Shown here one piece after another: positions 3 through 11,954 of a stretch of DNA of 64,000 nucleotides. Position numbers and translations under genes: made by a program. The notes under the pieces were generated by a model, which searched no databases, had not been told where the DNA came from, and saw only the letters and a program-made list of their open reading frames with translations. Position 1 is the first letter of the stretch. The number at the start of each line of letters is the position of its first letter. The DNA comes from an uncultured Caulobacteraceae bacterium (lineage in GTDB: Bacteria > Pseudomonadota > Alphaproteobacteria > Caulobacterales > Aquidulcibacteraceae), in NCBI GenBank assembly GCA_964443435.1, contig CAYUCW010000001.1:11474-75473 (forward strand). The letters run 5' to 3'.

Positions 3-701
<699 letters not shown>

Positions 702-743
702 TTATTTATATTGGCAGAATCGTTTTTGCCTTTATACTTAATT

Positions 744-1493
744 ATGAGTTTTCCATTAAATTTACCTTTATTCGGGCAAAATATTCCAAGTCATAGTATT
801 CTTGAAACATTGTCTTATTTTATTGGGTATCGTTTCTATTTATTCTTAAAGCATAAATGGAAAGATGATTATGGCGACGAAGCACGCCTTAATATTTTTG
901 TTGGCGCAATATTAGGTGCGGCTATAGGGTCTAAACTTTTAGGTTTTTTAGAGCATAAAATTTTATGGAGTTTAGCACTAGAAAATATAATTCATATAAT
1001 GGCTGCAAAAACAATTCTTGGCGGATTAATCGGTGGCACAATTGGGGTTGAAATCGTAAAATTCTTTTGCAAGATCAAAAGATCTAGTGGTGATCTATAT
1101 GTTTTTCCAATAATATTGGGAATTATAATTGGTCGCATCGGCTGTTTCTTGGATGGCGTTAATGATGGAACCTGGGGAAATAAAACAAGCTTTATTATGG
1201 GAATAGATGGTGGTGATGGGGTATTGCGCCATCCAACCCCTCTTTATGAAATTATCTTTTTAAGTTTGCTATTTATAAGTTTGTGGAAAATTAAGCCAAA
1301 AATTAAAACTGAAGGTGATTTGTATAAAATCTTTCTTGGTTCTTATTGTTTTTGGCGATTTTCAATTGAGTTTATAAAGCCTATCGAAACTCATACTATT
1401 TTGAATCTTTCTTTTATCCAGATGGCATCAATACTTATGATTGTATATTATTTTTTTGTGTTTATCATGCGAAGAAAAAGAAGGATAATTTAA
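744..1493 (+). CDS. Prolipoprotein diacylglyceryl transferase (Lgt)-family membrane protein, divergent paralog
   Basis: GRIGCFLDG, RHPTPLYE and YCFWRFSIEFIK correspond to Lgt GRLGNFING, RHPSQLYE and RxxxEFxR; multiple TM segments. ATG 744 preferred over 711. Confidence 0.85.
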   Translation: MSFPLNLPLFGQNIPSHSILETLSYFIGYRFYLFLKHKWKDDYGDEARLNIFVGAILGAAIGSKLLGFLEHKILWSLALENIIHIMAAKTILGGLIGGTIGVEIVKFFCKIKRSSGDLYVFPIILGIIIGRIGCFLDGVNDGTWGNKTSFIMGIDGGDGVLRHPTPLYEIIFLSLLFISLWKIKPKIKTEGDLYKIFLGSYCFWRFSIEFIKPIETHTILNLSFIQMASILMIVYYFFVFIMRRKRRII

Positions 1494-2878
1494 TGCCAGT
1501 TCGTGATTATGTTTTTTATGAATTAACGAATAGCATTTGTCCTGATTGCTTCAAAAAATTAGAAGCAAAAATAATTATACAAGACAATAAAGTATATTTG
1601 GTGAAGCAATGCCCAGATCATGGGAAGTTTAAAGTCCTCATTTCTGATGATGCCGAATATTATAAAAAGACCAGAGATTTCCTTAAGCCTGGTGATATCC
1701 CTATTAAATTTAGTAAAAAAGTTGAACTTGGCTGCCCTTATGATTGTGGGCTCTGCACAGATCATGAACAACATTCATGTGTTTCAATCATAGAACTTAC
1801 CGATAGATGCAATCTTACCTGTCCTGTTTGCTATGCATCTTCTTCACCTTCGAGTGGAAGCCATAGGAAGCTTGAAGAAGTCAAAGCAATGATTGATATT
1901 ATTGTCAAAGCCGAAGGCGAGCCAGACGTAGTGCAATTGTCAGGAGGAGAACCAACGCTTCATCCAGATTTTTTTGAAATTCTCGATTATTGCAAAACAA
2001 AGCCTATTCGCCATTTAATGATTAATACAAATGGCTATAGAATTGCCAATGAGCCAGATTTTGTAAAAAGACTTAGCATGTATATGCCATCTTTGGAAAT
2101 TTATCTTCAATTTGATAGTTTTGAAAAAGAAACTCTAATTAAATTACGTGGGCAAGATGTTACAATTTGGCGTGAAAATGCGATTAAACATCTTAATCAA
2201 TATAATATTTCTACGACTTTAGTTGTTACTTTACAAAAAGGCCTAAATGACAGTGAAATTGGTAAAATAACTGATTTTGCAAAAGATCAAAAATGCATAA
2301 GAGGGGTAACATTTCAACCAACCCAATACGCAGGTAGAATTGAAAATTTTGATCCTGAACTTGATAGGCTTACATTAAGCGCGGTACGAAATGAAATTTT
2401 AAAACAATCTGAAATTTTTAATGCCGAAGATTTAATTCCTGTTCCATGCCACCCTGATGCAATTATGATGGGCTATGCATTGAAGCTTGGCGATGAAATA
2501 TTGCCACTAACAAGATATTTTAGTCCTGAAGACCTTTTAAGTGCCACTCGAAACACAATAAACTTTGAAACTCTTCCTGAAATTCAATCAAAGCTTTTTG
2601 AATTATTTTCGACCTCTAATTCCCCACAAGATTGCACTGAGAAAATTGCAGAAATTATGTGCTGTTTGCCAAAAATCGAAATAGGGCAGTTAAATTATTC
2701 AAATTTGTTTAGAATTATTATTATGAAATTCTATGATGCTTATGATTTTGATGTGCGCGGTGTTAAAAAATCTTGCGTTCATATTGTGCATAAAGACGGA
2801 CGCATAATTCCTTTTGATACTATGAATTTATTTTATAGAGATCCTAAAGATGAAGCAAAACTTATGGGGGCAAGGTAA
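1493..2878 (+). CDS. Radical SAM protein of the Tes/GDGT-MAS (MJ0619)-like family
   Basis: N-terminal CPDC...CPDHG, GCPYDCGLCTDH, radical SAM CNLTCPVC, SGGEPT, NTNG, YLQFD, C-terminal KKSCVH...DGRIIPF. Confidence 0.85.
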   Translation: MPVRDYVFYELTNSICPDCFKKLEAKIIIQDNKVYLVKQCPDHGKFKVLISDDAEYYKKTRDFLKPGDIPIKFSKKVELGCPYDCGLCTDHEQHSCVSIIELTDRCNLTCPVCYASSSPSSGSHRKLEEVKAMIDIIVKAEGEPDVVQLSGGEPTLHPDFFEILDYCKTKPIRHLMINTNGYRIANEPDFVKRLSMYMPSLEIYLQFDSFEKETLIKLRGQDVTIWRENAIKHLNQYNISTTLVVTLQKGLNDSEIGKITDFAKDQKCIRGVTFQPTQYAGRIENFDPELDRLTLSAVRNEILKQSEIFNAEDLIPVPCHPDAIMMGYALKLGDEILPLTRYFSPEDLLSATRNTINFETLPEIQSKLFELFSTSNSPQDCTEKIAEIMCCLPKIEIGQLNYSNLFRIIIMKFYDAYDFDVRGVKKSCVHIVHKDGRIIPFDTMNLFYRDPKDEAKLMGAR

Positions 2879-3147
2879 TGGATGAGCCAATTAAAAAGTT
2901 TAATTATTTACAATTGAGCGGTATCTATCTTATTATTATAGTTATTGCTAATTTTATTGGAGGTTTAGGGTTAGCCGCTTTTATTCAATTACCTGTAATT
3001 TTAATAACTTTTTTTGTCGCGATCGTGTTAAGTTTTAGTAAACCATTTGATAAACAATACTGGATTTTATTTGGTATAGCTATATTAATAAGTGGGCCAA
3101 GTTGCTTTTTATTAGGAATGTTTAATTTGGCATATAGGTATTATTAA
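2878..3147 (+). CDS. Small membrane protein (about 3 TM), paralog of the next gene
   Basis: Hydrophobic 89 aa; TAATG overlap with the rSAM stop; WILFGIAILISGPSCF motif. Confidence 0.75.
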   Translation: MDEPIKKFNYLQLSGIYLIIIVIANFIGGLGLAAFIQLPVILITFFVAIVLSFSKPFDKQYWILFGIAILISGPSCFLLGMFNLAYRYY

Positions 3148-3470
3148 TGGGTACAATAACACCAAAAAAACTATATATTGGCTTCAGCGCTATATATGTA
3201 ATTATTATACTTATTTTTCATTTATACTTCCGTGATGACCATTTAGGTTTACTAGTAGTATTTGCAGCTCAATTCACTTTTATAGTTCTTGTATTTGCAA
3301 TTGCAATTATTGCGAGCTTAACTTTATTTCTAATAAAACCTGAATTAATAAAACATTTCTGGATATTTTTTGGTCTTACTGTACTTTTAAGCGGTGCTCA
3401 GTGTTTTTATATTTTTGCAATAGAAGCAATTATAACAAATAATGAGTTGTATATTTTGAACGGAAAATAA
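3147..3470 (+). CDS. Small membrane protein (about 3 TM), paralog of the previous gene
   Basis: Hydrophobic 107 aa; TAATG overlap; WIFFGLTVLLSGAQCF motif. Confidence 0.75.
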   Translation: MGTITPKKLYIGFSAIYVIIILIFHLYFRDDHLGLLVVFAAQFTFIVLVFAIAIIASLTLFLIKPELIKHFWIFFGLTVLLSGAQCFYIFAIEAIITNNELYILNGK

Positions 3471-3486: not shown

Positions 3487-4065
3487 CTAAATAACCGTAA
3501 TCAACCAAAAGCCAAAAACAATAAAGAAAGCCACTGCGCCAGTAACCCAATAAAGCTGTTTTTCAATAAATGGCTCTATGCTAGGGCCAAATTTCTGTGC
3601 AAGCCATGCAACACCAAAAAATCTTGCACCTCTTGTAATTGCACATGACATTACAAAAACAAAGAAATTGAATTTCGTCATTCCTGAAAGAATGGTCACA
3701 AGCTTAAAAGGAATTGGCGTAAGGCCTTTAATAAGAATTACTAAAGCACCATATTTTTGGAATTGCTCATTGAAATGAACCATTTTTTCGGCATAGCCAT
3801 AGAATTCCATTAATGGCTTTCCTACTGTATCCATCAAGAATAAACCAATAAAATAGCCAAAAATACCACCTAACACTGAGGCAATTGTTGCAATTAAAGC
3901 GGTTTTCCACCAATTTTTTGGATTTGTTGCCGCCATTGGTAAAATCATAACGTCGGGCGGAATTGGGAAGAAAGAAGCTTCGGCAAAAGAAACGATGGCA
4001 AGTGCTGGATTAGCTTTTTCAGATGCAGCAAGAGTTCTAAGTTTTAAATATAAGTTTTTAAGCAT
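3487..4065 (-). CDS. YqaA/DedA (VTT domain) membrane protein
   Basis: SFAEASFFPIPPDVM, ATIASVLGGIFGY, TPIPFKL. Start taken at ATG 4065. Confidence 0.9.
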   Translation of the reverse strand: MLKNLYLKLRTLAASEKANPALAIVSFAEASFFPIPPDVMILPMAATNPKNWWKTALIATIASVLGGIFGYFIGLFLMDTVGKPLMEFYGYAEKMVHFNEQFQKYGALVILIKGLTPIPFKLVTILSGMTKFNFFVFVMSCAITRGARFFGVAWLAQKFGPSIEPFIEKQLYWVTGAVAFFIVFGFWLITVI

Positions 4066-4197
4066 GAACCCAAATAACCATTTTATGATAAATAATAAAT
4101 TAAGAAATGCATGAAACCTCAATTATTTTGCAAAATAATATGATTTTGCTTGTAAATAATCAATTTTCGTGTCTAATTTAACTATGGAGGGGCTATT

Positions 4198-4611
4198 ATG
4201 AAATTATTTGGTGTAAAATTAGTACCGATTTTAGTTGCGGCGCTTGCGGCATATATCGTTGGAATGGTTATTTATGGGTTGTTATTTTCGGCGCAATGGA
4301 TGGCCTGGAGTGGTAAAACCGCGGAGTCTTTCAAAGGGCTTGAATGGCGAATGGCGCTTAGTCCGATTATGCCACTTGTACTATCTTTTGGCATAGCTAA
4401 AGCAATTAATGCCCGAAATATAGTAAATTGGATATCTGGTCTAAAACTAGGCGTTTTTATCGGCCTATTTTTAACAATTTCGACAAGACTTTATACTTTT
4501 GTCTATGGTACAGAGCCAATAGAATTATACCTTCTTGATAGTGTTCATTTTATATTGATTAGTGCTGTATGTGGTGCAATTCTTGCTAAAATGAAAGTCG
4601 GTGAAGTTTAA
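4198..4611 (+). CDS. DUF1761-like membrane protein
   Basis: 4 TM; N-terminal AALAAYIVGMVIYGLLFSAQWM pattern. Confidence 0.65.
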   Translation: MKLFGVKLVPILVAALAAYIVGMVIYGLLFSAQWMAWSGKTAESFKGLEWRMALSPIMPLVLSFGIAKAINARNIVNWISGLKLGVFIGLFLTISTRLYTFVYGTEPIELYLLDSVHFILISAVCGAILAKMKVGEV

Positions 4612-4686
4612 ACTGCTATTTCAAGAAAACTAACTTGGAATTTTCGGATAATAATGTAAGCCAATTATTATAAATTGGTTTTTAAA

Positions 4687-5472
4687 ATGCGTATTTTACT
4701 TGTAAATGATGATGGAATTAATGCTGAAGGCTTTGCGGTTCTCGAGAAAATTGCAAATGCACTAAGTGATGATGTTTGGGCGGTTGCGCCCGATAAAGAA
4801 AGATCGGCGGTTTCACGCGCAATAACTTTGCATGATCCCATTAAAGTAAAGCAATTAGGACCAAAAAGATTTGCATGCTCTGGTACCCCAACTGATTGCG
4901 TTATTATTGGTGTACTTGACATTCTAAAAGATAAAAAGCCAGATTTAATTTTATCGGGGGTTAATCGTGGGCAAAACTTGGCGGAAGATGTCACGGTTTC
5001 TGGAACGGTTGCGGGCGCAGTGCAAGGTATGCAAATGGGCATTAAATCAATCGCGCTTTCGCAAACTATTGATTTTTCTGACTATGGCCCCGCTTGTTTT
5101 GAAGTTGCAGAAAAATATAGCGTCGAGATTATAAAAAAGCTTTTAAATGCTTTTTGGCCGCCAACAATTGTTATGAATGTTAATTTCCCAATGAAAATTT
5201 GTATGAAAAACATTGATGAAGCAATCATAGAAGCAACTTCACAAGGTGCACGCGAAGAAGATGTTAATCATGTTCACAAGCGTGAAGATTTGCGCGGAAG
5301 TGAATATTATTGGCTTGGCTATAATCAACAAGAACATTTACCGCCATTAGGTACGGATTTACGCGCGGTTATGGATGGTAATATTTCTATAACTCCATTG
5401 CATATTGATTTAACTTCACGAAGCGTATTAAATGAGCTTGCAAAAGATTTTGTAACAAAATTGGAAAATTAA
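4687..5472 (+). CDS. surE: 5'/3'-nucleotidase SurE
   Basis: MRILLVNDDGINAEG, GTPTDCV, SGVNRGQN, SGTVAGA. Confidence 0.97.
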   Translation: MRILLVNDDGINAEGFAVLEKIANALSDDVWAVAPDKERSAVSRAITLHDPIKVKQLGPKRFACSGTPTDCVIIGVLDILKDKKPDLILSGVNRGQNLAEDVTVSGTVAGAVQGMQMGIKSIALSQTIDFSDYGPACFEVAEKYSVEIIKKLLNAFWPPTIVMNVNFPMKICMKNIDEAIIEATSQGAREEDVNHVHKREDLRGSEYYWLGYNQQEHLPPLGTDLRAVMDGNISITPLHIDLTSRSVLNELAKDFVTKLEN

Positions 5473-6107
5473 TGGATTCAACGGCTTCGCGCGCAAAATT
5501 AATTCTGGCATTAAGGCAACAGGGCATAAGAGACCCAAGAGTGCTTACAGTGCTAGAAACAGTGCCGCGTGAACTATTTGTTGCCCCCGAATTTGCACCG
5601 CGCGCTTGGGATAATTCGGCGCTTCCTATAAGTTTTGGACAAACAATTTCACAGCCCTTTGTGGTTGGTGCTATGACTGCGGCACTTGAACTTTCAGGTA
5701 ATGAATTTGTCTTAGAAATTGGAACTGGTTCAGGTTATCAAACCGCAATTCTTTCAAAGCTTGCGCGGCGTGTTTTCACGATTGAGCGCTATCGTCCTTT
5801 AATGAAAGAAGCGCAAAAACGCTTTGAAGCTTTGGGGCTAACTAATATTGTTGCAAAATGTGATGATGGTGCAAATGGCTGGGTAGAGCAGGGGAAGTTT
5901 GACGCAATAATCGCAACTTGTGCTTTTGCCAATCGCCCAGATAGTTTGCTTGCGCAATTAAAAATTGGTGGCCGATTTATTGTACCAGTTGGTCAAGGAA
6001 GCGTGCAAGAGCTTTTAAGATATAGACTACGCGAAGATGGCGTATTCGAAGAAGAAGCTTTGATGGATGTGCGTTTTGTGCCGCAACTTCCTGGGATATC
6101 TGGATAA
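5472..6107 (+). CDS. pcm: Protein-L-isoaspartate O-methyltransferase
   Basis: GQTISQP, VLEIGTGSGYQTAILS; follows surE with a TAATG overlap. Confidence 0.97.
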   Translation: MDSTASRAKLILALRQQGIRDPRVLTVLETVPRELFVAPEFAPRAWDNSALPISFGQTISQPFVVGAMTAALELSGNEFVLEIGTGSGYQTAILSKLARRVFTIERYRPLMKEAQKRFEALGLTNIVAKCDDGANGWVEQGKFDAIIATCAFANRPDSLLAQLKIGGRFIVPVGQGSVQELLRYRLREDGVFEEEALMDVRFVPQLPGISG

Positions 6108-6147
6108 TATTAAGCACCTATAAACCATGTTTTGCCATAATTAGATT

Positions 6148-7305
6148 ATGCGAAATAAAAGAATTATTTTTGGCTTATTTGTTTTCACCCAATTATTATG
6201 TGTGAATGGCTTTGCGCAAACAAAGTTAAATGAAGTTGCCCCGGCTGGGACTGCGAAATTTGATCCGAAAAACCCGCCAACTGAAACTATTGTTAAAAAC
6301 CGTGAAACACTTTTCGATATTGCAGAAAGAACACGCTCACCGCTTGAGGGGATAATCGAAGAAAATAATCTTTCGCCGCCCTATAGCTTGGTAGCAGGGC
6401 AGAAAATCAAGCTTCCTCCTCTAAAGGTTCATATTGTTCAAAAAGGTGAAAAGCTTGAAACCATTGCCGCAAGATATAGTATAAATCTTCGTTCGCTTGC
6501 CGTTTTTAATAATCTTAGTCAACCTTATAATATAAAAAGAGGCCAAAAAATTATAATGCCTGCAATGGTGCAGGATAGCTTAACTGGTAAAGAAGCTATT
6601 GACCTCATAAGTTTGATTACTGGGGAAATTAATAGCGGTAAAAAAGTATCTGGCAATAATGGCGGTGCGATTTCAATCCGTAGAGATAATACAATACCGC
6701 AATTACCAAAGGGGTTTAGCGGTATAGATTCCGTGCCTATCGCGCAGCCGGTTAATCCGGTTCCAAAACCGAAATCTAATGTGCCCAATACTGCCATTAA
6801 TTCACCAAAGCCTAATATTGCAACCAAGCCAAAAGCAATAAGTACCGAAGCTAATACTAATCAGATAAATCCACCAAAAACTAATGTAAATCCAACGCCA
6901 AATAATGCGATTATTAATGTTGTGAATGGTCGTTTTTCTTGGCCTATTAAGGGAAATATCCTTGAAACTTTTGGCGAAAAGCGCAATTTTGTTAAAAATG
7001 ACGGAATTGATATTGCTGCGCCATTAAATACGCCATTCAAAGCTACTGCCGATGGGGAAGTTGCCTTTGTTTCAGATAAGATTACGGGATATGGCTGGCT
7101 TGTTTTGATAAAGCACAAGGATGGATTTCTAAGCACTTACGCTTATGCCAATAAAATTATTGTTAAAGAAGGTGATATAGTCAAAAAAGGTCAAGAAATT
7201 GGCTTAATTGGGCAAACTGGCCGTGCCACAAGCCCAAGGCTTCACTTTCAAATTCGTAATGGACTTAGTCCAATTGATCCTACGCCACATTTAAATAGAG
7301 GCTAA
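6148..7305 (+). CDS. LysM + M23 peptidase-domain protein (NlpD/DipM-like)
   Basis: Signal peptide, two LysM repeats, Pro/Asn-rich linker, C-terminal WPIKG..NDGIDI..LHFQIR; surE-pcm-nlpD synteny. Confidence 0.9.
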   Translation: MRNKRIIFGLFVFTQLLCVNGFAQTKLNEVAPAGTAKFDPKNPPTETIVKNRETLFDIAERTRSPLEGIIEENNLSPPYSLVAGQKIKLPPLKVHIVQKGEKLETIAARYSINLRSLAVFNNLSQPYNIKRGQKIIMPAMVQDSLTGKEAIDLISLITGEINSGKKVSGNNGGAISIRRDNTIPQLPKGFSGIDSVPIAQPVNPVPKPKSNVPNTAINSPKPNIATKPKAISTEANTNQINPPKTNVNPTPNNAIINVVNGRFSWPIKGNILETFGEKRNFVKNDGIDIAAPLNTPFKATADGEVAFVSDKITGYGWLVLIKHKDGFLSTYAYANKIIVKEGDIVKKGQEIGLIGQTGRATSPRLHFQIRNGLSPIDPTPHLNRG

Positions 7306-7306
7306 A

Positions 7307-7774
7307 ATGAAAAATCTTATTATTATTTCCCTTATTGGGCTTTCATTAGCTGCTTGTTCAAAATCAGAAGAAACAAATTCGGGTGAGGCTTTAAAAATTG
7401 AAGCAATGCAGGATAAAAAAGAACCTGAAAACAAAGTCGTTCAAAAGGCTTTTGCCAAGAATTTATTGATTGGAAATTGGGCACAAACCAGTGAAAAATG
7501 TAATTCAAGCGAAGCCATGAGTTTTAAGTCTAATGGCGAATATGACACTTCTGAAATTACTGGAAATTGGTCATTAAAATCCAATATTATAAATGTTAAA
7601 TTACCAAGCGAAGAAGAAAGCCTTGGTCAAGCAGAGCTTAATGAAATTGATCTCAAAATCCTTGCTTTAGATGCGAATACGCTAAAACTAAGGGCTGCGG
7701 ATAACGAAAAAATTACTCTTATTCGTTGCACCATAGAGCCAATCGAACAAGAAGACGAAATTTTGGCAAAATAA
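7307..7774 (+). CDS. Hypothetical lipoprotein
   Basis: Signal peptide with lipobox LAAC. Confidence 0.7.
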   Translation: MKNLIIISLIGLSLAACSKSEETNSGEALKIEAMQDKKEPENKVVQKAFAKNLLIGNWAQTSEKCNSSEAMSFKSNGEYDTSEITGNWSLKSNIINVKLPSEEESLGQAELNEIDLKILALDANTLKLRAADNEKITLIRCTIEPIEQEDEILAK

Positions 7775-9626: not shown

Positions 9627-10364
9627 ATGACTAATAAAATTATTATGGCAATAATAAATGCCACTTATAAAATCCATCAAACAAAACCCGAAGGCGGTTT
9701 TACTATAGGTACAAGTTGGCTGATTAATATGACTGAATTAGTCGGTAAGGAAAAATACGCGCTTATCACCGCGCACCATGTTTTGGCGGGGATGCAAAAA
9801 GACTATTTAGAATTAAATTGGCGCAAAAAGACCAAAGATAGCTATGAAGCTAAGATGGTACAAATTAAAATAAGAAATAATGGCGAACAATTATGGTTTA
9901 CCCATCCAAAATACGATGTTTCATGCATTTGGTTATCGCAGAACGATATTATAAGCTTAGACGATTTAAGAGAATGCGCGCTTCCTTATAATTATTTGGC
10001 ATCAGAGCAAGAAATGAAAGCCAATGATATAAGCATAAGCCAAGAATTATTCGCACTTGGCTATCCTAAAGGTCTTAGTTCCAACCATATTGGTTTTCCA
10101 ATCCTAAGATCTGGCAGGATTGCAAGTTATCCATTATGGCCGATGGATAGTTTTGCGTGTTTCCTTATGGATTTTTCTGTATTTTCTGGAAATTCAGGCT
10201 GTCCGGTATTTATGCCTGAATATATTGGCGGAAGCATAAAAATAATCGGCATGCTTACGCAGCAGGTTATTTTAAACAATGAAAGACTTGAAATGGGTAT
10301 TGTCCTTCATGCCGAAGGCGTAAGAGATGCTTTGCAAATCTTTAGTTTTGCTAAGACGGTTTAA
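9627..10364 (+). CDS. Trypsin-like serine protease
   Basis: Catalytic triad motifs TAHHV, YDVS, GNSGCPV. Confidence 0.8.
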   Translation: MTNKIIMAIINATYKIHQTKPEGGFTIGTSWLINMTELVGKEKYALITAHHVLAGMQKDYLELNWRKKTKDSYEAKMVQIKIRNNGEQLWFTHPKYDVSCIWLSQNDIISLDDLRECALPYNYLASEQEMKANDISISQELFALGYPKGLSSNHIGFPILRSGRIASYPLWPMDSFACFLMDFSVFSGNSGCPVFMPEYIGGSIKIIGMLTQQVILNNERLEMGIVLHAEGVRDALQIFSFAKTV

Positions 10365-10713
10365 AATCAAGAACCGCGCCATTAATGCAATATCTTAAGC
10401 CAGTTGGCTCTGGGCCATCTGGGAAAACATGACCAAGATGTGCGCCGCAATTGTCGCAATGAACTTCGATGCGCGTGCTAGAAAGCTTAGTATCGGTTTT
10501 TGTTCCAATTGCATTATCGCTTATAGGTTCAAAATAACTAGGCCAGCCAGAGCCAGAATTATATTTCGCAAGGCTTGAAAATAATGGCGTGTCGCAAACC
10601 GCACAATTATATATACCATCACGCTTTTCATCATTTAAAGGCGAAGAAAAGGGTCTTTCAGTGCCTTCATGCTTGGCAATTCTAATTTGTTCAGGGCTTA
10701 GTTCTTTTGTCAT
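10351..10713 (-). CDS. msrB: Peptide methionine sulfoxide reductase MsrB
   Basis: GTERPF, KYNSGSGWPSY, HLGHVFPDGP, RYCING. Confidence 0.97.
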   Translation of the reverse strand: MTKELSPEQIRIAKHEGTERPFSSPLNDEKRDGIYNCAVCDTPLFSSLAKYNSGSGWPSYFEPISDNAIGTKTDTKLSSTRIEVHCDNCGAHLGHVFPDGPEPTGLRYCINGAVLDFKPS

Positions 10714-11954
10714 TTTTCACCTTTAAAAATATTTTTTCCAAACTTATTATTAAGCTTATCAATTGCTTTTTCTAGTTTGGCATATTTTTGATTATTTGTA
10801 TTAATTAAATCATTTTCATCTGCGCCAATATCTTCTTTTACATTATTAAGTCCAATTCCAATAAGCCTGAATGGGGCTTCTTGCATAATATCTGCTAATA
10901 AAGGTTTTGCCGCTTCGTATATTATACGTCCAGTTTGCGTAGAAGTTACAAGGCTTGTTTGCCTTGTTATATTTTTAAATCTAATAGTTTTTGCTTTTAA
11001 GTGAATTGTATTAGCCGCAAGATTCTTACTTCTGGCTTCTGCGGCAATTTTCATACAAAGCACTCGTAGGATTTTTAGCAATTCTTCTTGGCTACTTATA
11101 TTATTACTAAAAGTAGTTTCTGTGGATATGGATTTTCGGGCATGGGTTTCACCAATTTTTCTATTATCAATTCCCCATGAATATTCATAAAACCTTTGAC
11201 CCGTATTACCAAAGCATTGAATTAAATAATTTTTATCGGCATTCGCAATATCACCAATTTTTTTAAAGCCTAGCTTTTCAAAGTTTTTTACACTTGCACC
11301 GCCTAGGCCATGAATAAAGCTTATTGGTCTTGGCCAGAGAACTTCTTTAATATCATCACTAGTTAAAATATAAAAACCGCGCGGTTTGTCCATATCACTA
11401 GCAGTTTTGGCAAGAAACTTATTATTAGATAGCCCAATTGAAACTGTGATCCCGATTTCTTGTTCAATAGTTTTGGCAATTTTGGCAAGGCTTTGAGCGG
11501 CAATCATTTTATGAAGCTTTTGCGTACCTGAAAGATCTAAATAAGCTTCATCAATTGAAACATTGTCAATAATCGGGGTGTATCTTTGAAATACTTCTTG
11601 AATTCTTTTGGCTTCTTTGCGGTATAAAGCGCCATTAGGTTTTATAATCACTGCCTCTGGGCATAATTTTTGCGCAACAAACATTGGCATTGCCGACTTA
11701 ACGCCTTTTGTTCTTGCAATATAACAAGCAGTAGCTACGACCCCACGCGTACCACCGCCAATAATAACTGGCTTATCCATAAGTTTGGGATCTTCACGTT
11801 TATGAATTGAAGCGAAAAAAGCGTCGCAATCTATATGGGCAATATTAAGGTCTTTTAAGTTTTTATAGTTTATAAGCCTGCGACTATTGCAAGTGGGACA
11901 CTTAGAAAGTGGCTCAAAAAACAAATTAAAGCAGTCACGACACAAAAAATCCAC
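10710..11954 (-). CDS. dinB: DNA polymerase IV
   Basis: [19 protein letters not shown]-terminal Zn ribbon typical of alphaproteobacterial DinB. Confidence 0.95.

Follow-up and report, generated by a model that had tools for sequence, protein, structure and literature searches.

The tetraether synthase Tes (MJ0619) of the archaeon M. jannaschii, an enzyme of the radical S-adenosylmethionine (SAM) family, was described by Lloyd et al. (PMC9433317) as carrying a rubredoxin-like iron site (C9-x2-C12...C33-x2-H36), an N-terminal auxiliary cluster held by C73, C77, C80 and a histidine ([4Fe-4S]N), the CX3CX2C cluster of the radical SAM family, and a C-terminal auxiliary cluster ([4Fe-4S]C) held by three cysteines and a labile methionine, Met439, near a conserved Tyr459; the Y459F and Y459L variants remain active, so that this tyrosine is not essential (PMC9433317). 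Bacterial homologues of Tes have been proposed, without proof, to be makers of glycerol dialkyl glycerol tetraethers of the branched type (brGDGTs; PMC8941075, PMC11868695). In the prolipoprotein diacylglyceryl transferase Lgt of E. coli, R143, R239, E243, R246 and H103 were found to be intolerant of mutation, and Y235 nearly so (Mao et al., PMC4728403); R143 and R239 were assigned to activation of the phosphatidylglycerol donor, and the HGGL motif was proposed as the peptide-binding site (PMC4728403). The subject of this report is a bacterial gene cassette in which relatives of these two enzymes stand side by side, found in a stretch of 64,000 nucleotides (hereafter the window) from an uncultured Caulobacteraceae bacterium (assembly GCA_964443435.1, contig CAYUCW010000001.1, positions 11,474 to 75,473 of the forward strand).

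The radical SAM gene is the second of four genes, which lie on the window as follows:

744..1493, forward strand: Lgt paralog of the prolipoprotein diacylglyceryl transferase family, 249 amino acids from the ATG at 744 (Pfam LGT; fold match)
1493..2878, forward strand: radical SAM protein with the Tes fold, 461 amino acids (Pfam, NCBIfam, alignment to structure 7tol, AlphaFold2 (AF2) model and Foldseek)
2878..3147, forward strand: small membrane protein 1, 89 amino acids, with a single cysteine, C76 (nucleotides 3103-3105), in the tail ...ILISGPSC-FLLGMFNLAYRYY
3147..3470, forward strand: small membrane protein 2, 107 amino acids, with a single cysteine, C86 (nucleotides 3402-3404), in ...VLLSGAQC-FYIF...

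Each gene is joined to the next by a TAATG stop/start overlap (at 1491-1495, 2876-2880 and 3145-3149), and the four genes are translationally coupled. This gene context is the main finding; it falls outside the coordinates covered by an earlier, sequence-only reading of the radical SAM gene, in which the decisive context was missed. The trio of Lgt paralog, radical SAM protein and small cysteine proteins, which is conserved in several bacterial phyla, points to what may be an undescribed lipid or protein-lipidation pathway. Judged from sequence comparison and modelled structure, there is in our estimate an even chance that the radical SAM protein is a functional Tes-fold enzyme of a separate, widespread bacterial clade, and that it would work only with the dedicated Lgt paralog and the tiny single-cysteine membrane proteins.

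The pairing of Lgt paralog and radical SAM gene was first seen in Asticcacaulis, Flavobacterium and the planctomycete Uabimicrobium, and a relative of the radical SAM gene was subsequently found in at least 585 GTDB species representatives. From that scan 80 loci, mostly of Bacteroidota, were kept, and the counts for the cassette are based on 85 loci. An Lgt-like open reading frame (ORF) is present in 79 of these, and in 65 it lies immediately upstream of the radical SAM gene on the same strand, the remainder being mostly contig ends. A small ORF with a cysteine tail follows the radical SAM gene immediately in 76 of the 85 loci, typically at an offset of -3 to +15 nucleotides, and two to four such ORFs are present in 29 of those 76; the same permissive filter, applied behind unrelated control genes of the same loci, returned 22 of 238 (9%). 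The clade is very large, with roughly 60% identity between phyla, and the closest named relative of the window protein is from a Hyphomonadaceae metagenome-assembled genome (80% identity). The sequencing runs that contain the region are metagenomes, those with labels including drinking-water, freshwater, wastewater and pond samples, and the GC content is about 36%. One copy, in a metagenome-assembled genome labelled Candidatus Woesearchaeota archaeon (locus L023, JBLINR010000012.1), shares 62% identity with the window protein, about as much as the Bacteroidota loci do; the filter found no small cysteine-tail ORF behind it, and the copy looks like a case of mis-binning or recent transfer.

The two small proteins of the window are paralogs of one another (phmmer E 4e-7). 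Across the loci such proteins are multi-pass, very hydrophobic and 42-140 amino acids long, and they vary in length and in the number of transmembrane (TM) helices, only one short motif around the cysteine being conserved: L-L-I-[G/S]-[F/L]-[G/S]-[I/V/T/S/A]-C, with 4-9 residues behind it. The last lysine or arginine lies a median of 17 residues ahead of the cysteine, 80 of 96 tails hold no lysine or arginine at all, and the upstream part carries a net positive charge, a placement that by the positive-inside rule would put the cysteine where an in-to-out helix reaches the outer face. The geometry resembles that of a signal peptide followed by a lipobox, yet the box is non-canonical and lies mostly at the C-terminal end; a canonical N-terminal lipobox ([LVI][ASTVI][GAS]C) ahead of a mature domain was not found. 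At the loci of relatives P0121 and P0122 (L086 and L087) the motif follows the first TM helix, and a second TM helix lies behind it. The small ORFs reached the threshold of no Pfam or NCBIfam family. In some records the small proteins have not been called as genes, for example at 7451..7741 of the Asticcacaulis locus L001; copies from Flavobacteriia share an N-terminal LEVGNLDGL, and many loci hold two to four copies in tandem.

The mechanically defined ORF of the Lgt paralog (260 amino acids) starts at a TTG at 711. That codon sits within a terminator-like hairpin (713-730; GGCAGAATCGTTTTTGCC, then a T-rich stretch) that follows the serS stop in the region 699..746, and the ATG at 744 is for that reason the likelier start; a scan for promoters and terminators performed no better on this DNA than on shuffled sequence. 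The protein scores 83 bits against Pfam LGT (cut-off 24.9) and 46.8 bits against the NCBIfam Lgt equivalogs, whose cut-offs of 119-334 (118.9 for TIGR00544) it does not reach. Its AF2 model has a mean predicted local distance difference test score (pLDDT) of 93, and its sole significant fold match in the PDB is E. coli Lgt (5azb; query-normalized TM-score, TMq, 0.67; E 2e-6); a phmmer search with the protein against PDB sequences returned nothing real. The charges at its termini predict the same topology as that of Lgt, and public annotation of the paralog family says only 'prolipoprotein diacylglyceryl transferase (family protein)'. A canonical lgt gene was not found in the 64,000 nucleotides of the window.

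An alignment to Lgt of E. coli MG1655 (NC_000913.3), made by way of the family hidden Markov model, separates what has been kept in this paralog family from what has been replaced. The equivalents of R143, G154, Y235 and R239 are kept in 36 of 36 paralogs (in paralog numbering R131, Y201 and R205 are kept in all 36, and E209 in 33), and the equivalent of E202 is Glu in 35 of 36 and that of E243 Glu in 33 and Asp in 3. The equivalent of R246 is Lys throughout, the His of HGGL is replaced by Leu, Val or Met, and Asn146 is replaced by Cys in all 36 (C145 of the 260-residue ORF, C134 counted from the ATG at 744, nucleotides 1143..1145). Since the donor residues are kept and both the HGGL His and Asn146 are replaced, the paralog has the appearance of a lipid transferase that is active but altered at its acceptor site, an alteration in keeping with the unusual motif that the small proteins carry. 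The cysteine in place of Asn146 adjoins the catalytic Arg and may take part in the mechanism, for instance as a covalent intermediate or through a metal contact.

The same replacements lend themselves to another explanation, in which the small proteins would be anchors or a scaffold that holds the radical SAM protein and the Lgt-like protein together, the latter merely presenting a phospholipid and the cysteine having a structural part. The great variability of the small proteins in length and TM number around one short motif, and the loss from the Lgt paralog of both the proposed lipobox-binding His and the essential Asn146, would agree with this arrangement. The invariant cysteine, however, whose distance from a preceding positive patch is fixed and which lies within a lipobox-like pattern of Gly and Ser, has the look of an acceptor site; the transfer network of R143, Y235, R239 and E243 is fully kept; and one branch of the clade includes a protein like isoprenylcysteine carboxyl methyltransferase (ICMT), whose family acts on a lipidated C-terminal cysteine. 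We regard a purely structural role of the small proteins as improbable.

The radical SAM gene itself (1493..2878, forward strand) is, in the ORF listing of the window, a single ORF with an ATG start, and all the motifs that had been quoted from it by the sequence-only reading are present in its translation: C16PDC19, C40PDH43, GC81PYDC85GLC88 and C106NLTC110PVC113, and, further along, PVPC319HPD, MC390C391LP and KKSC428VH...DGRIIPFD442TM444N. The corresponding sites are:

1538..1621, forward strand: rubredoxin-like iron site C16-x2-C19...C40-x2-H43 (Zn_ribbon_HMPTM; alignment to MJ0619)
1733..1780, forward strand: N-terminal auxiliary [4Fe-4S] motif C81-x3-C85-x2-C88 and H91, with H94 and C96, neither of which is present in true Tes (alignment to MJ0619)
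1808..1831, forward strand: radical SAM cluster motif C106-x3-C110-x2-C113 (Pfam Radical_SAM)
2447..2461, forward strand: PVPC319-HPD-A323 (column analysis of the alignment)
2660..2665, forward strand: C390-C391 pair (MCCLP), invariant and without a counterpart in true Tes
2723..2824, forward strand: C-terminal site region with M411, S427, C428, I431, D442 and M444 (HMMER alignment to 7tol; columns)

Invariance was assessed among 17 relatives of 61-84% identity drawn from Alphaproteobacteria, Gammaproteobacteria, Bacteroidota and Planctomycetota. In all 17, C16, C19, C40, H43, C81, C85, C88, H91, H94 and C96 are kept, as are C106, C110, C113, C268, C319, C390, C391 and C428; such invariance across phyla places the motif cysteines far from chance. 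The Pfam domains Zn_ribbon_HMPTM (E 1e-20) and Radical_SAM span residues 8-51 and 100-263, respectively. In the HMMER alignment C16, C19, C40 and H43 fall on C9, C12, C33 and H36 of MJ0619, C81, C85 and C88 fall on C73, C77 and C80, and H91 falls on the conserved His. The column of C96 holds Cys in most bacterial relatives and Val in the Tes exemplars P0246 and P0249. The CX3CX2C motif is invariant in 90 of 90 sequences of the superfamily, the GGE motif is kept, and R219, Q275 and R282 correspond to R210, Q268 and R275, the residues of MJ0619 that bind 5'-deoxyadenosine (5'-dA).

Comparison with solved structures places the protein within the Tes fold. Its sole strong match is the M. jannaschii GDGT-MAS/Tes structure 7tol (E 6e-67, over the stretches 11-320 and 336-454), and an AF2 model built from 90 superfamily sequences (pLDDT 89, predicted TM-score 0.88, with only residues 373-396 below 50) is matched full length by Foldseek to 7tom and 7tol (TMq 0.83, 488-492 columns, 29% identity), so that all four domains of the Tes architecture (rubredoxin-like, N-terminal cluster, radical SAM core and C-terminal domain) are present. 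The next Foldseek matches, to SkfB, viperins, SuiB, MoaA and EpeE, have TMq values of 0.33-0.43 and cover the radical SAM core only; models of MoaA, NirJ and the mycofactocin maturase likewise reach 46-56 bits over the core, against 283-324 for Tes and TrsS. The earlier assignment to Tes-fold radical SAM enzymes is thus borne out (7tol E 6e-67, TMq 0.83), and no grouping with MoaA/PqqE-type SPASM proteins, one of the outcomes that the same reading had said would overturn it, was seen (about 50 bits; TMq at most 0.43).

Those secondary matches bear on the possibility that the system resembles the maturation of peptides that are synthesized on ribosomes and modified after translation (RiPPs), with the radical SAM protein modifying the small protein directly (by a thioether or otherwise, at or near its cysteine) before membrane insertion, the hydrophobic cysteine tail occupying the Tes-type lipid pocket and the Lgt paralog then lipidating the product or processing it in another way. 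The small ORFs are coupled directly behind the radical SAM gene and often stand in tandem, as precursor peptides do; the cysteine motif is their only conserved feature; the closest folds after Tes are the peptide maturases SkfB, SuiB and EpeE; and the loss of the Tes-cluster cysteines could leave room for the thiolate of a substrate. The likeness to maturases, however, is confined to the radical SAM core (TMq 0.33-0.39), and the match to Tes extends over all four domains (0.83); near the radical SAM gene in the loci examined, neither a RiPP recognition element nor a protease nor an exporter is conserved; and the presumed peptides are multi-pass membrane proteins of 42-140 amino acids rather than leader-core peptides. 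A peptide-maturase role accordingly seems to us unlikely, if still worth bearing in mind. The name '7,8-dihydro-6-hydroxymethylpterin dimethyltransferase', which JGI annotation gives to relatives P0034 and P0040 and which survives in the Pfam name Zn_ribbon_HMPTM, suggests yet another function, that of a pterin methylase. That name goes back to the first assignment of MJ0619, which structure and assay later showed to be a tetraether synthase (PMC9433317); no pterin or methanopterin genes lie near the radical SAM gene in the window, and the conserved partners are lipid and membrane proteins. The prospect of a pterin methylase is very nearly nil.

In its C-terminal domain the window protein departs from Tes. 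A full Tes-like metal-site layout had been claimed for it, which holds for the rubredoxin, N-terminal auxiliary and SAM sites and fails for the C-terminal site, where A323, S427 and D442 stand at positions that are Cys in true Tes. Specifically, C455 of MJ0619 is replaced by S427 and C470 by D442, Tyr459 by I431 and the Tyr of TYN by M444 (HMMER alignment and columns), and A323 occupies the position of the third true-Tes cysteine (HPxC); Met411 is kept as the equivalent of Met439, and C428 corresponds to C456 of MJ0619. The sequence-only reading had given the archaeal C-terminus correctly (MJ0619 reads CCIHY...IPFCTYN) and was right that the site is altered, but its suggestion that a Cys and a Tyr were replaced understated the change, which takes in three Tes cysteines, Tyr459 and the TYN tyrosine. 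The window protein has none of the three cysteines of the true-Tes C-terminal cluster and instead has C319, C390, C391 and C428, which are invariant in its family. The Tes ligands were assigned by conservation among MJ0619, P0246 and P0249 rather than from coordinates, since the text of PMC9433317 names only three Cys and Met439. Common to those three proteins are the first Cys of CC/CV, the Cys of PFC and the Met of MHFMD; the HPxC cysteine is seen in P0246 and P0249, residues 335-371 of MJ0619 falling outside the alignment.

How these two sets of cysteines are distributed was examined across the superfamily. When 1.84 billion representatives were searched exhaustively with HMMER, 12,207 matches were obtained at E<1e-3, 670 of them at E<1e-30; 90 full-length sequences were aligned and scored for the Tes set and for the alternative set. 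The Tes set, with at most one alternative cysteine, was found in 15 of the 90, including the true Tes exemplars; 42 hold both sets (complete in 27), including the TrsS exemplar P0170; 25 hold the alternative set alone; and in 8 neither set is complete. Among the sequences with both sets, P0127, P0132, P0137, P0143, P0146, P0150, P0170 and others show PxPC-x3-4-C, a CxxC or CC pair, KCC and PFC. Such bacterial relatives would have about eight cysteines in this domain, as many as two clusters need, whereas a single cluster is seen there in the structure of archaeal Tes, the domain being the C-terminal one; archaeal Tes would on this pattern have kept one set of cysteines and the window clade the complementary one. 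A neighbour-joining tree, rough and drawn without support values, separates from Tes and TrsS all the sequences that have none of the three Tes cysteines, which lie on one side together with P0141 (one of the three retained). Family scores agree: against the Tes model NF045702 the window protein reaches 283.3 bits (cut-off 450; exemplars P0246 and P0249 reach 556 and 480), against the TrsS model NF045646 it reaches 324.4 bits (cut-off 490; exemplar P0170 reaches 502), and Lgt-linked relatives score 227-324 bits on both. By these measures it belongs to neither curated family.

Linkage to the Lgt paralog was found to follow the same division. The trio is present in five of five representatives of the alternative set checked outside the window clade (P0121, 56% identity; P0122, 45%; P0134, 40%; P0133, 42%; P0144, 36%), each with an Lgt gene next to it and a small G-x-x-C-bearing TM protein, in varying gene order and down to 36% identity. 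No Lgt neighbour was seen in either of the two both-set representatives checked, P0127, which adjoins DsbD-like and methyltransferase genes, and the TrsS exemplar P0170, which lies among URO-D, RACo and MCR genes on an archaeal contig. In the representatives compared, the linkage to Lgt and small proteins tracks the cysteine pattern and not taxonomy. In the branch of P0144 an ICMT/PEMT-like methyltransferase and a DUF4395 protein stand between the radical SAM gene and the Lgt paralog (L090, 5406..6439; L091, 3601..4634), and the ICMT family recalls the CaaX-type processing of a lipidated C-terminal cysteine.

These results also bear on whether the window protein might be a bacterial Tes orthologue that joins two fatty-acyl tails, in the manner of iso-diabolic acid or brGDGTs, with the Lgt paralog and the small proteins accessory or unrelated. 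The Tes fold is full length, the SAM, rubredoxin and N-terminal cluster sites are intact, Met411 (the equivalent of the labile Met439) is kept, and many of the hosts are Bacteroidota with abundant iso-C15:0 acids. Set against this, most hosts are aerobes from the Flavobacteriia, Chitinophagia, Sphingobacteriia and Caulobacterales, groups not known for membrane-spanning lipids; the protein falls below the Tes equivalog cut-off; all three Tes-type cysteines are gone from the cluster that stores the first substrate radical; its region of the tree is separate from that of true Tes; and the strict linkage to Lgt and the small cysteine proteins would be left unexplained. An orthologue of this kind has been the published hypothesis for bacterial Tes homologues (PMC8941075), although Sahonero-Canavesi et al. 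found no Tes homologues in producers of diabolic or iso-diabolic acid outside the Acidobacteria, and found them in only 3 of 14 acidobacteria that produce iso-diabolic acid. Orthology to Tes therefore has, in our assessment, a slim chance; of the original interpretation, the Tes fold and the altered C-terminal site stand, and the ester fatty-acyl chains that it proposed as substrate are no more than a candidate.

If the preferred reading of a dedicated three-component system is correct, the following scheme could account for the cassette. The Lgt paralog would transfer a diacylglyceryl or related group from a phospholipid to the cysteine of the small protein at the periplasmic face of the membrane, and, because no cleavage would follow lipidation in this scheme, the small proteins would serve as dedicated lipid acceptors or carriers. 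At the cytoplasmic face, hydrocarbon chains of the same lipid pool, belonging either to the lipidated product or to the donor phospholipid, would enter hydrophobic pockets of the Tes kind in the radical SAM enzyme. The 5'-dA radical would abstract a hydrogen atom from a chain carbon that is not activated, and an alternative iron-sulfur site formed by C319, C390, C391 and C428 would help to complete a C-C or C-S bond. In a more specific version, the Lgt paralog would S-lipidate uncleaved mini-membrane proteins and the radical SAM enzyme would cross-link the tails, so that ordinary aerobes from three or more phyla would make a macrocyclic or membrane-spanning lipid anchored to a protein; this version is in our view possible but doubtful.

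Several points weigh against this scheme. The Lgt-type active site and the cysteine of the small proteins are periplasmic, whereas an enzyme that depends on iron-sulfur clusters and SAM must be cytoplasmic; being on opposite faces of the membrane, the two enzymes cannot touch the same atom simultaneously, so that the scheme has to assume a lipid intermediate that is flipped or shared, such as a donor phospholipid modified before transfer. The order of the steps and the shared intermediate are guesses. The ligands of the Tes C-terminal cluster have been deduced from conservation in bona fide Tes, and it could be that the alternative cysteines do no more than ligate that cluster anew, with chemistry that would perhaps still be Tes-like; the loop that holds C390 and C391 has a pLDDT below 50 in the AF2 model, and the alignment is gappy between residues 372 and 404. 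Finally, the homology of the small ORFs rests on position, composition and one motif, with no detectable family.

The cassette is flanked by a DedA/VTT protein (3487..4122, reverse strand), with weak matches to the undecaprenyl-phosphate transporter UptA, and by a DUF1761 protein (4198..4611, forward strand). Both were considered and rejected as members of the cassette; both are missing from all 84 other loci, and they are for that reason probably unrelated to it. Beyond them lies a row resembling surE-pcm-nlpD (4675..7305), read by eye from translations as a SurE 5'-nucleotidase, a protein-L-isoaspartate methyltransferase and a LysM/M23 lipoprotein, followed by an MsrB-like gene (10351..10713, reverse strand) and a DinB/Pol IV-like gene (10710..11954, reverse strand); this row and the two genes after it are an ordinary housekeeping context. 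A scan of the window with Rfam found only a distant tRNA.

As far as could be found, the literature describes neither the coupling of an Lgt paralog with a radical SAM enzyme, nor this cassette, nor the term 'lipo-invert', and the combination of a Tes-superfamily radical SAM enzyme with an Lgt-family transferase is apparently undescribed. A 2026 review of lipid-modifying radical SAM enzymes covers Tes, Mss, Gms, Grs, Gmm, Cds, the Hpn enzymes, Jaw5 and the ladderane enzymes, and holds nothing like the cassette; the 'lipobox-like GS' system of the Lipocone was considered and is a different system. A protein-anchored, radical-modified lipid would, if true, be categorically new, and the cassette could show how the Tes scaffold is used with a different auxiliary cluster and whether Lgt-family acceptors extend beyond the classical lipoproteins. 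Bacterial Tes homologues in genomes and metagenomes have been counted as candidate producers of branched tetraethers, lipids that serve as palaeoclimate proxies (PMC8941075, PMC11868695). Surveys of such homologues probably over-count, because this clade passes typical BLAST thresholds (window protein against 7tol, E 6e-67), lacks the cluster ligands and is tied to an Lgt-type enzyme. With three to four genes in culturable aerobes (Flavobacterium, Mucilaginibacter and Asticcacaulis), the system is also a tractable one.

Set beside the systems described so far, the cassette shares individual features with five of them. The radical SAM enzyme Mss, proposed or shown to couple bacterial fatty-acyl tails (Sahonero-Canavesi et al. 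2022), is a possible functional analogue; by description only, it differs in being remotely related to Tes, in occurring in anaerobes (Thermotogales and Clostridia) and in having no reported Lgt or small-protein partners. The curated model NF058595 ('invert_tail', lipo-invert putative C-terminal anchoring domain) is the only one that recurrently, if weakly, matches the small cysteine-tail proteins (6 of 40, best E 0.0076), which suggests that its curators may have noticed a related C-terminal signal, and its name hints at lipoprotein-like anchoring; all of the matches, however, fall far below the 37-bit cut-off, and the model describes a domain of 113 positions within larger proteins. No curated family scores better with the window protein than TrsS (NF045646; alignment 12-447), which belongs to the same superfamily; no published description of its function could be found, the name occurring only in one tabulated entry of a selenoproteome review. 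Its exemplar P0170, however, keeps the Tes-type cysteines (xxHC, KCCIH and PFC) along with additional CC pairs.

The other two systems are Lgt and Tes. Like E. coli Lgt (5AZB), the product of the upstream gene has an LGT domain, a seven-helix fold, the same predicted topology and the catalytic network; unlike Lgt, it has Cys for Asn146, Leu, Val or Met for the HGGL His103 that is essential in E. coli, and Lys for R246, and its presumed acceptors are uncleaved and carry a non-canonical motif near the C-terminus in place of an N-terminal lipobox. From Tes (MJ0619; 7TOL, 7TOM; NF045702) the window protein differs in its additional invariant cysteines (C96, C319, C390, C391 and C428), in the replacement of the Tes-type cluster cysteines, in belonging to a bacterial clade of mostly aerobic hosts and in adjoining an Lgt paralog and small cysteine proteins, as Tes does not; with Tes it shares the four-domain fold, three of the metal sites, the residues that bind SAM and 5'-dA, and the equivalent of Met439.

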